From NCBI RefSeq assembly GCF_003334385.1, contig NZ_QOWN01000036.1: a stretch of 43,104 nt of DNA; one strand, given 5' to 3'. A model generated the notes under the pieces. It was not told where the DNA came from and made no database searches. It worked only from the letters and a program-made list of their open reading frames with translations. Source of the DNA: Escherichia coli (GTDB lineage: Bacteria; Pseudomonadota; Gammaproteobacteria; Enterobacterales; Enterobacteriaceae). Positions 1 through 39,905 of this stretch are shown one piece after another. The first letter of the stretch is position 1. Each line of letters begins with the position of its first letter. Made by a program: the position numbers and the translations under genes.

Positions 1-71
1 GGTGATGACGGGATCGAACCGCCGACCCCCTCCTTGTAAGGGAGGTGCTCTCCCAGCTGAGCTAATCACCC
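1..71 (-). tRNA. valT: tRNA-Val (anticodon UAC), 3' end truncated by window edge
   Basis: Reverse complement of 1-71 gives GGGTGATTAGCTCAGCTGGGAGAGCACCTCCCTTACAAGGAGGGGGTCGGCGGTTCGATCCCGTCATCACC, a cloverleaf with anticodon loop CTTACAA; the last discriminator/CCA bases lie outside the window. Confidence 0.9.
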
Positions 72-107
72 GATACTACGCTGGATACTACAACTAACTA
101 TGTTAGT

Positions 108-124
108 GGTGGGTCGTGCAGGAT
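108..124 (-). repeat. 17-bp copy of the 3' end of tRNA-Lys (tggtgggtcgtgcagga) in the lysT-valT spacer
   Basis: Exact match of 108-124 to 207-223 (the 3' end of the lysT gene), not followed by the rest of a tRNA. Confidence 0.6.
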
Positions 125-206
125 GACTCGACTTCGTCTCGCCCTTCGGGCCGTTGCTCATGCAACGTTATCCTTCACGTTTTACTACCGCTTCCACCTT
201 AGCGAT

Positions 207-282
207 TGGTGGGTCGTGCAGGATTCGAACCTGCGACCAATTGATTAAAAGTCAACTGCTCTACCAACTGAGCTAACGACCC
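207..282 (-). tRNA. lysT: tRNA-Lys (anticodon UUU)
   Basis: Reverse complement is GGGTCGTTAGCTCAGTTGGTAGAGCAGTTGACTTTTAATCAATTGGTCGCAGGTTCGAATCCTGCACGACCCACCA, 76 nt, anticodon loop CTTTTAA, CCA encoded. Confidence 0.93.
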
Positions 283-446: not shown

Positions 447-1238
447 TTACATCGCGTTCAGACGTTTTTGTGCCTGTTTAGCGCCATCAGTACCAGGGTA
501 TTTACTGATAACCTGCTGGTATACGGCTTTCGCTTTTGCGGTGTCACCTTTGTCCTGCATGATGACGCCGACTTTAAACATCGCATCTGCAGCCTTTGGT
601 GACTTCGGATAGTTTTTCACTACCGAAGCAAAATAGTACGCCGCATCATCTTTTTTACCCTTGTTGTAGTTTAACTGACCCAGCCAATAATTGGCGTTTG
701 GCAGGTAAGTTGAATCAGGGTAATTTTTGATGAAATTCTGAAATGCCACCATTGCGTCATCCTGGCGGGATTTATCCTGCACCAGCGCAATAGCTGCATT
801 GTAATCCGTGTTTGCATTACCGCTTTTCACCGGCGCGCCAGCATTCGCAGTACCAGCATCAGCTGTCGGCGTCGTTGATGCCGCCGCACCGCTTTGATCG
901 CCGCTGGTTGATTGCGCCGCTGCACCACCGCTGCTGAGGCTGTCGATCTGCAACAGGATCTGCTTTTGCCGCTCCACGACCTGATTCAGTTGATACTGAT
1001 TTTCCTGAATCTGACCACGCAGGGAATCAATATCGGATTGATTATCAGAAAGTTGTTGCTGGAGTTGGGTTAAAAGCTGGCTGTGAGCATTAGAAATACG
1101 CTCAAGTTGAGTGACGCGGTCTTCGACCGAGCCTGAGCCGACACTACTGATTGGTGCCTGAGCAAAAGCGGCCCAGGGGGCCGCTATACCAACCAGTAAC
1201 GACAGACTCAATAGTTGATGTCTGAAGTTACTGCTCAT
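447..1238 (-). CDS. cpoB: Cell-division coordinator CpoB (YbgF), periplasmic TPR protein
   Basis: 263-aa ORF with signal peptide (MSSNFRHQLLSLSLLVGIAAPWAAFA), coiled-coil Q-rich region and C-terminal TPR-like repeats; last gene of the tol-pal cluster. Confidence 0.95.
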   Translation of the reverse strand: MSSNFRHQLLSLSLLVGIAAPWAAFAQAPISSVGSGSVEDRVTQLERISNAHSQLLTQLQQQLSDNQSDIDSLRGQIQENQYQLNQVVERQKQILLQIDSLSSGGAAAQSTSGDQSGAAASTTPTADAGTANAGAPVKSGNANTDYNAAIALVQDKSRQDDAMVAFQNFIKNYPDSTYLPNANYWLGQLNYNKGKKDDAAYYFASVVKNYPKSPKAADAMFKVGVIMQDKGDTAKAKAVYQQVISKYPGTDGAKQAQKRLNAM

Positions 1239-1247
1239 GCAATTCTC

Positions 1248-1793
<546 letters not shown>

Positions 1794-17905: not shown

Positions 17906-18076
17906 CCGTAGGCCTGATAAGACACGTTAAACGTCACATCAGGCATCGCTTGTCGGATGCGGCGCTAGCGCCTTATCCGACCTACATTGGTGGTCCCGTA
18001 GGCCTGATAAGACGCGTCAGCGTCGCATCAGGCTTCAATTGCCGGAGAAGGCGATAATGCCTTATCCGGTCTACAG
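17906..18076. repeat. REP/BIME cluster in the sucB-sucC spacer
   Basis: Multiple gtaggcctgataagacgcg... and cggatgcggcg... / ccttatccg palindromic units within a 274-bp intergenic gap. Confidence 0.6.
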
Positions 18077-22310: not shown

Positions 22311-22428
22311 CCTGATGCGCTGCGCTTATCAGGCCTACGGGTAATGACTTGTAGGCCGGATAAGGCGTTCACGCCGCATCCGGCACTGGTTGCCTGATGC
22401 GACGCTTGCGCGTCTTATCAGGCCTACG
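22311..22428. repeat. REP/BIME cluster in the sdhB-sucA spacer
   Basis: cctgatgcgctgcgcttatcaggcctacg..., ggccggataaggcgttcacgccgcatccggc... and gcctgatgcgacgcttgcgcgtcttatcaggcctacgg palindromic units. Confidence 0.6.
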
Positions 22429-39775: not shown

Positions 39776-39905
39776 GCCTGATGCGACGCTTGACGCGTCT
39801 TATCAGGCCTACGTATTTCCTGCAATTTATTGAATTTGCACAAATTTGTAGGCTGGATAAGGCGTTCACGCCGCATCCGGCATCTGGGCTCGATTGCCTG
39901 ACGCG
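39776..39905. repeat. REP/BIME (RIP-like) element in the convergent dtpD-phr spacer
   Basis: gcctgatgcgacgcttgacgcgtcttatcaggcctac and tgtaggctggataaggcgttcacgccgcatccggcat palindromes flanking ctgcaatttattgaatttgc. Confidence 0.6.

Follow-up and report, generated by a model that had tools for sequence, protein, structure and literature searches.

The window that we analysed, a 43,104-nt stretch of an Escherichia coli genome (NZ_QOWN01000036.1), starts inside the lysT tRNA operon on the minus strand and holds valT, a spacer and lysT, followed by cpoB, pal and tolB. valT (1-71, minus strand) is cut by the window edge and lacks its last 5 nt; the Rfam tRNA model matches it as a 3′-truncated tRNA (56.9 bits), and matching E. 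coli genomes annotate it as tRNA-Val. lysT (207-282, minus strand) was called by ARAGORN as tRNA-Lys(UUU) and scored 79.2 bits against the Rfam tRNA model. The lysT-valT spacer between them covers 72-206 (135 nt). Further into the window, a perfect 12-bp inverted repeat (ACACGACCAGAA / TTCTGGTCGTGT, 10-nt loop) lies at 405-438, just past the cpoB stop (minus strand), and, lying upstream of the lysT promoter region, probably serves as the terminator hairpin of that gene. Rfam matches above cut-off elsewhere in the window were the CpoB/ybgF thermometer (142 bits; 1209-1347, minus strand), two naRNA4 (17911-17982, minus strand; 22354-22424, plus strand) and the ES036 sRNA (39805-39847, minus strand).

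The spacer carries an exact copy of the lysT 3′ end. The 17-mer TGGTGGGTCGTGCAGGA occurs twice in the 43-kb window, at 107-123 and at 207-223, and still twice when up to 2 mismatches are allowed. We ruled out a chance repeat, as 100 dinucleotide-preserving shuffles gave an expectation of 0.00 copies. The occurrence at 207-223 is the 3′ end of tRNA-Lys(UUU) on the minus strand with the complement of its CCA, and 83 nt lie between the two 17-mers. The identity stretches to 18 nt (107-124 = 207-224, the latter being the source copy) at a spacing of 100. The first-pass annotation of this DNA, which had matched 108-124 to 207-223, was correct about the exact duplication and the CCA complement and one base off in the start, since 108-124 corresponds to 208-224. 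It had also placed the copy outside any tRNA, and so do our searches: ARAGORN calls lysT alone, and matches to the Rfam tRNA model are confined to 210-282 and 1-71. A tRNA pseudogene was likewise rejected, as neither program finds a cloverleaf at 72-206 and the interior aligns to the core of another RNA family, RtT.

Performing a whole-window Rfam scan, we obtained 58.8 bits for RtT (RF00391) over 107-275 (minus strand), the curated gathering score being 45 bits. That alignment takes the model's 5′ half from lysT's own T arm. The unit at 107-206 (minus strand) alone scored 40.6 bits, below 45 (E 4e-7), as a 5′-truncated match confined to model positions 51-130, and we therefore regard it as a short, truncated RtT form. 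This 100-nt unit lies between the lysT CCA and a CCA of its own. It starts at the base right after the lysT CCA on the same strand, likewise in all copies examined, and ends with the exact copy of the adjacent tRNA's 3′ end and CCA, that is, with the 18-mer. The minimum-energy fold contains a closing helix, made by the tRNA-derived 3′ segment and an upstream complement, together with internal hairpins. Judged from sequence and predicted fold, the 17-mer is the 3′-terminal part of a 100-nt short-form unit of the known RtT family. A standard Rfam scan is enough to flag it. The RtT element was first described in the tyrT operon, where Egan and Landy in 1978 and Bosl and Kersten in 1991 reportedly found 178-bp repeats, each ending in the tRNA-Tyr 3′ end. 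A role of the rtT RNA of tyrT in the stringent response has been proposed; decades on, we know of no established function for the family. No description of RtT-like units in the lysT operon was found in the literature searched, to which the original tyrT/rtT papers did not belong.

Read in the direction of transcription, the unit begins with a variable linker of a kind that we call type A (AUCGCUAAGGUGGAAGCGGUAGUAAAA; 180-206, minus strand), common to several genera at this position. Then comes the 5′ arm (CGUGAAGGAU; 170-179, minus strand), which makes 9/10 pairs with the 3′ arm around one conserved A.G mismatch. Three hairpins on the minus strand fill the interior: H1 (CGUUGC-AUGA-GCAACG; 152-167), H2 (GCCC-GAA-GGGC; 141-151) and H3 (GAC-GAA-GUC; 130-138). 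The 3′ arm (AUCCUGCACG; 115-124, minus strand), predicted to pair with 170-179 as the 3′ strand of the closing helix, is a copy of the end of the T loop, the 3′ strand of the T stem and the start of the acceptor 3′ strand. The unit closes with the tail ACCCACCA (107-114, minus strand), which belongs to the 18-mer and comprises the remainder of the copied acceptor 3′ strand, the discriminator base and CCA. The tail lies outside the conserved closing helix; in the predicted fold of the window unit its CCACC pairs with GGUGG of the linker. We dropped this pairing as a general feature, other copies being without GGUGG. The distal spacer (RNA CUAACAUAGUUAGUUGUAGUAUCCAGCGUAGUAUC; 72-106, minus strand) then leads to valT. 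The ORFs found at the unit, of 20-54 aa, are all unconserved, and the unit has no coding capacity. One of them, a 31-aa ORF (MSNGPKGETKSSHPARPTTNIVSCSIQRSIG; 66-161, minus strand), has its ATG inside the variable H1 loop and is not conserved, because that loop differs among copies; in the tyrT repeats the equivalent region holds the small tpr ORF. A search of the spacer gave no promoter, and its sole terminator-like match, on the plus strand at 152-167, is hairpin H1 in reverse.

RNAfold gave the window unit −34.7 kcal/mol (z −3.06), with the closing helix drawn around the three hairpins, and the z-scores of other copies ranged from −2.4 to −4.9. We then aligned 85 distinct short units, namely the window's own, 5 of the Arg type and 79 of the Lys type, the last drawn from 80 species loci of Enterobacteriaceae. 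Over the four helices, 92.9% of cells were paired vs 27-46% with the partners slid. The closing helix was paired in 88.5% of cells, H1 in 99.4% and H2 in 94.7%. Pairs changed on both sides numbered 7, against a shuffle mean of 2.1, a count reached by 0/500 shuffles, although this control overstates the significance because the aligned sequences are related. In H3, columns 60/67 went from A-U to G-C with both sides changed in 14 sequences, and 3/6 pairs of H1 had both-side changes. Stems and arms were 90-99% conserved and the unpaired tail columns 91-97%, compared to 49-82% (average ~75%) in the loop columns of H1 and H2. Thus, the four predicted helices are supported by compensatory changes across ~80 species, and for this reason we do not regard the unit as a decaying relic.

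The first-pass annotation had called the copy an orphan, which is misleading, because the lysT operon of a K-12-like genome holds 10 exact copies of the 17-mer, 5 at tRNA-Lys ends and 5 in spacers or the trailer. The spacer copies lie ~100-156 nt downstream of each tRNA-Lys end, and the five units to which they belong score 46.7-60 bits against RF00391. In K-12, a unit is present behind all six tRNA-Lys genes. RefSeq annotates an 'RtT sRNA' after lysQ, lysV and proK and four at tyrT/tyrV, which are long forms only; four short copies of the K-12 lysT operon and three copies in the argV operon are unannotated. The latter three are short units in the serV-argVYZQ operon of K-12 (minus strand, at ~761-895, 1025-1159 and 1440-1573 within NZ_CP026361.1 2816900-2818500) that end in ATCCTCCCGGATGCACCA, the exact end of tRNA-Arg(ACG). 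Two of them scored 41.2 and 31 bits, below 45, and the third had no match at E <= 0.01. The proK unit, with the tRNA-Pro(CGG) end at its terminus, scored 101.3 bits. In total we counted 14 units in K-12, with 5 in the lysT operon, 1 behind lysV, 3 in the argV operon, 1 behind proK and 4 at tyrT. In two genomes (NZ_CP195607.1, NZ_AP045777.1) a 700-nt query aligned as two pieces over 783 nt, covering two tRNA-Lys genes, which points to a difference between strains in copy number or arrangement of the array.

Related units thus stand behind tRNA-Tyr, Arg(ACG), Pro(CGG) and Pro(UGG), each ending in the last 17-18 nt of its own tRNA. Scanning metagenomes for the RtT core, we retrieved 120 loci; ~15 other matches fell by chance inside coding sequence. 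Each metagenome unit follows one of four tRNAs, and its last 17 nt equalled those of that tRNA in 41/54 units behind Arg(ACG), 21/28 behind Lys(UUU), 12/15 behind Pro(CGG) and 22/24 behind Pro(UGG). All five host tRNAs (Lys, Tyr, Arg-ACG, Pro-CGG, Pro-UGG) have the T-arm 13-mer AGGTTCGAATCCT in common; for the proM-type tRNA it was seen in metagenome loci. Going by annotation only, K-12 proM itself (tRNA-Pro UGG; NZ_CP026361.1 3981800-3983600) has no RtT downstream; in other genomes this tRNA does carry units, as the 24 from metagenomes show. The tRNA-Arg gene argX of the K-12 proM operon, which presumably shares the 13-mer, is followed by a spacer of just 58 nt with no unit, again by annotation.

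The arms of the closing helix are specific to the host tRNA. Beside the Lys arms (CGUGAAGGAU/AUCCUGCACG, 9/10 pairs), the Tyr unit has GGGGAAGGAU/AUCCUUCCCC (10/10 pairs) and the Arg unit GCACCAGGGAGGAU/AUCCUCCCGGAUGC, with 12/14 positions paired and only ACCA left unpaired, so that the Arg-type closing helix extends to the first acceptor base pair; in the Pro unit 7-8 positions are paired. Long-form units also hold the variable loop and the 5′ half of the T stem of the local tRNA just upstream of the core (GAGGTTCGA in Pro, AAGGTTCGA in Tyr, GCAGGTTCGA or GCAGGTTTGA in Lys). They resemble a tRNA 3′ half whose TTCGA and ATCC have been separated by an insert of ~65 nt. After lysQ, lysV and proK, the duplicated block consists of a Rho-independent terminator and a long-form unit (155-156 nt), and in some species it stands in tandem two to three times, as the tyrT 178-bp repeats do. 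We saw this terminator-bearing block at loci L001 (1492-1700), L003 (1829-2020), L088 (600-850), L021 and L057.

We compared the spacer across relatives, as the first-pass annotation had proposed, and the DNA between the repeats proved to be a presence/absence polymorphism whose edge coincides with the repeat to the base. Measured behind 262 tRNA-Lys genes, spacers were either short (14-64 nt) or long (121-199 nt). Among the species compared at the first Lys-to-Val position, 32 had the filled and 31 the empty state. In 30/31 of the latter, the tRNA's CCA is joined to the distal spacer (typically CTAAC... or CTTAAAG...) just as the copy's CCA is in filled alleles. The same empty allele exists within E. 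coli: at locus L005 and in strain A42, the lysT CCA is followed by the 35-nt distal spacer and then valT. In the E. albertii lysT-valT spacer (locus L013, 4033-4077), a linker-like start (ATCGTAAAGATTGGAGCAGTAG...) is kept and the structured core is gone, which indicates an imprecise deletion, the exception among the 31 empty species. The filled spacer was found in 3592/5426 complete E. coli genomes, and 1466/5426 matched the query in part; the two of these that we inspected had 53 nt of distal spacer and tRNA end. About one in three complete E. coli genomes and about half of related species cleanly lack the unit, and the copy between lysT and valT is dispensable. The first-pass annotation held that a 17-mer conserved within a structured spacer in all relatives would speak against its reading; such a spacer is indeed found in about half of the relatives, the unit being missing in the rest. 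Where present, the unit has the same position and the same linker type in Escherichia, Salmonella, Citrobacter, Enterobacter, Klebsiella and Raoultella. Because the type A linker is common to these six genera, the filled state at the first Lys-to-Val position is probably ancestral, and precise losses have probably been recurrent.

The copy and the tRNA end also vary together. A second tRNA-Lys allele with a compensated change in the acceptor stem (GGGGCGU/ACGCCCC) occurred in 37/262 genes, in Citrobacter and relatives (for example, loci L031, L009, L055 and L008 among L004-L083). Comparing each tRNA with its copy, we counted 82 canonical-canonical, 9 variant-variant and 0 cross combinations, and the concordance was also seen in loci with both alleles. 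The A-to-C change in the downstream copies was found only behind variant tRNAs, and the changed base is the first of the tail. Because this base lies just outside the closing helix, we ascribe the tracking to repeat exchange or block inheritance rather than to selection for RNA pairing. Most of the signal comes from a single clade (Citrobacter and relatives), and block inheritance could explain it. In the literature searched, we found no earlier account of arms specific to each of five tRNAs, of copies that follow the tRNA allele or of common presence/absence within a species.

How the unit might be handled can be considered from the maturation of its neighbours. The 171-nt rtT RNA of tyrT is said to be cut out and trimmed by the enzymes that mature tRNAs. 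tRNA minihelices and other tRNA-like RNAs are substrates of RNase P and of CCA-handling enzymes. The lysT operon including its spacers is one transcript, separated mainly by RNase P; Northern probes to the lysT-valT spacer gave bands only in strains mutant for RNase P (rnpA49), without any report of a stable spacer RNA in the wild type (PMC4176162). A stable RtT-like product from the window copy is therefore doubtful. In the account that we favour, the closing helix and its CCA tail would imitate a tRNA 'minihelix', in which acceptor and T arms are stacked, and the enzymes maturing the neighbouring tRNAs would excise the unit and then trim or degrade it. Gene conversion or unequal exchange may keep the copy and the tRNA 3′ end alike. 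The 18-bp direct repeat flanking a hairpin-forming insert could in turn cause the unit to be lost precisely and repeatedly, through slippage or recombination. This whole account, a tRNA-linked RtT repeat with minihelix-like processing, a copy kept by conversion and repeat-mediated loss, is in our judgement the probable one. The Lys-form helix ends 4 nt short of a true minihelix and leaves an 8-nt tail.

A broader version of this idea is more speculative, and we doubt it in its full form. It would make all RtT-type units minihelix mimics limited to tRNAs with AGGTTCGAATCCT, the 3′ arm being continually re-copied from the adjacent tRNA by gene conversion and the 5′ arm then selected to re-form the helix. 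Such units might persist as cis modules handled by RNase P and 3′ exonucleases, so that long spacers would be tolerated or tRNA maturation regulated, or, alternatively, as selfish tRNA-linked repeats.

Several other explanations were weighed against the favoured account. The first-pass annotation had seen in the copy a possible footprint of integrase-mediated insertion or excision at a former attachment site; the 17-mers would then be attL/attR cores and the 83 nt an island or phage remnant, maybe excisable in trans. Many tRNA attachment sites do have a repeat from the T loop to CCA, as here, and the filled/empty polymorphism has a precise boundary at the repeat. However, the unit is without coding capacity, no integrase or other mobile-element gene lies within or beside it (the neighbours are cpoB and tRNA genes), and the same core with covarying RNA-type helices stands behind five tRNA species. 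The RtT core had 0 matches in 2.9 million viral contigs. Searched with BLAST, 50,697 phage records yielded 4 matches to the unit, namely 3 bacterial Salmonella contigs and one 'unverified' 7-kb contig; 72,556 plasmid records yielded 22, all in non-mobilizable records, most of them chromosome-sized, and the two that we examined hold chromosomal segments (gltX-valU; csrA-serV-argV-yqaB). Among the matches examined, which exclude those of Providencia, Arsenophonus and Yersinia, there was thus no phage- or plasmid-borne unit, and these examined matches are misfiled chromosomal DNA. With a filled state that looks ancestral across genera and with tandem copies in existence, for example at tyrT, we find an attachment-site footprint highly improbable. 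Three public records look misfiled: OR850888.1, an 'unverified' Salmonella phage contig with a chromosomal tRNA-Pro and RtT unit; NZ_CP093469.1, a 14-kb K. pneumoniae 'plasmid' made of the csrA-serV-argV-yqaB-gshA chromosomal segment beside an IS3-family transposase; and NZ_CP098226.1, a 50-kb E. coli 'plasmid' with gltX fragments and the lysV trailer. A mobile origin of another kind would be a selfish non-autonomous repeat targeting the T loop and 3′ end of AGGTTCGAATCCT tRNAs, with flanks copied from the target. The 13-mer in all five hosts, the long forms that look like a tRNA 3′ half with a ~65-nt insert at TTCGA/ATCC, and the patchy, dispensable nature of the unit are consistent with this. 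But we found no transposase or integrase that could act as its partner, the distribution agrees with vertical inheritance and loss, and homologous exchange suffices for spread within tRNA arrays. K-12 proM and argX, moreover, are without a unit by annotation, though other genomes have one at proM. We therefore give such a repeat little credence.

Decay and regulation are the other two possibilities. A neutral relic of a decayed tandem tRNA-Lys duplication, with the 3′ end alone recognisable, would agree with the exact tRNA 3′ end that closes the unit, with the variable-loop and T-stem 5′ half of the local tRNA in long forms and with an operon that evolves by duplication. The interior, however, does not resemble tRNA-Lys but consists of the RtT core that Arg, Pro and Tyr units also have, neither ARAGORN nor the Rfam tRNA model detects a pseudogene at 72-206, and stems 90-99% conserved while the H1 and H2 loops drift, with compensatory changes, do not look like neutral decay. 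As an account of the present state of the unit, a relic is unlikely and already contradicted by the covariation of the predicted helices. Of the ancestral tRNA duplication and decay that the first-pass annotation had offered as a second reading, the decay has thus to be given up, whereas an ancient partial tRNA duplication is possible as the ultimate origin. The unit might, on the other hand, give a trans-acting regulatory RNA, either in the stringent response as proposed for rtT or as an sRNA sponge like 3′ETS-leuZ, a functional tRNA-operon spacer. We know of no sRNA partner for an RtT-type unit. Family membership, the conserved structure and the conserved single-stranded stretches are in line with such a role; the lack of a stable spacer RNA reported in the wild type (PMC4176162) and the absence of the unit from about a third of E. 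coli genomes make us consider it improbable.

In practice, a short exact copy of a tRNA 3′ end in a tRNA operon of enterobacteria should first be compared with RtT and only then considered an attachment-site scar. The conserved fold, the tRNA-matched arms, the tracking of a tRNA allele and the existence of natural strains that have or lack the unit at one site provide handles for deciding between a role in pre-tRNA processing and a passenger. If the unit is a mere passenger, it reports on the ordinary repeat dynamics of a tRNA array.

Several known systems have traits in common with the unit. RtT-type units resemble minihelices in their predicted uninterrupted helix, which corresponds to the stacked acceptor and T stems and has NCCA after it; they differ in the three-hairpin core that stands in place of the T loop and, in the Lys form, in the 8-nt tail. 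The resemblance to tRNA attachment sites lies in the direct repeat from T loop to CCA and in filled and empty alleles with precise junctions. Unlike them, the unit is only 100 nt long, gene-free and without a phage or plasmid link among the matches examined, and its structured core is common to different tRNAs. As in 3′ETS-leuZ, a piece of a polycistronic pre-tRNA transcript would be released in processing, whereas the mimicry of a tRNA end is specific to RtT-type units. From the RtT RNA of tyrT, the short form differs by the lack of model positions 1-50 (a T-arm-like segment and one hairpin), and because these are missing its 5′ arm abuts hairpin H1. It also differs in lying inside the operon between tRNA genes, when the tyrT RtT comes after the terminator, and, unlike the long-form copies, the window unit is without RefSeq annotation. 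RtT-type units, those of tyrT included, can be repeated in tandem together with a terminator. Both the tyrT RNA and the window unit lie downstream of a tRNA on the same strand with the 3′ end and CCA of the local tRNA coming last. They share the core hairpins AACGUUGC..GCAACG, GCCC-GAA-GGGC and CGAGU, and in both the copied tRNA end pairs with an upstream complement as the closing helix.
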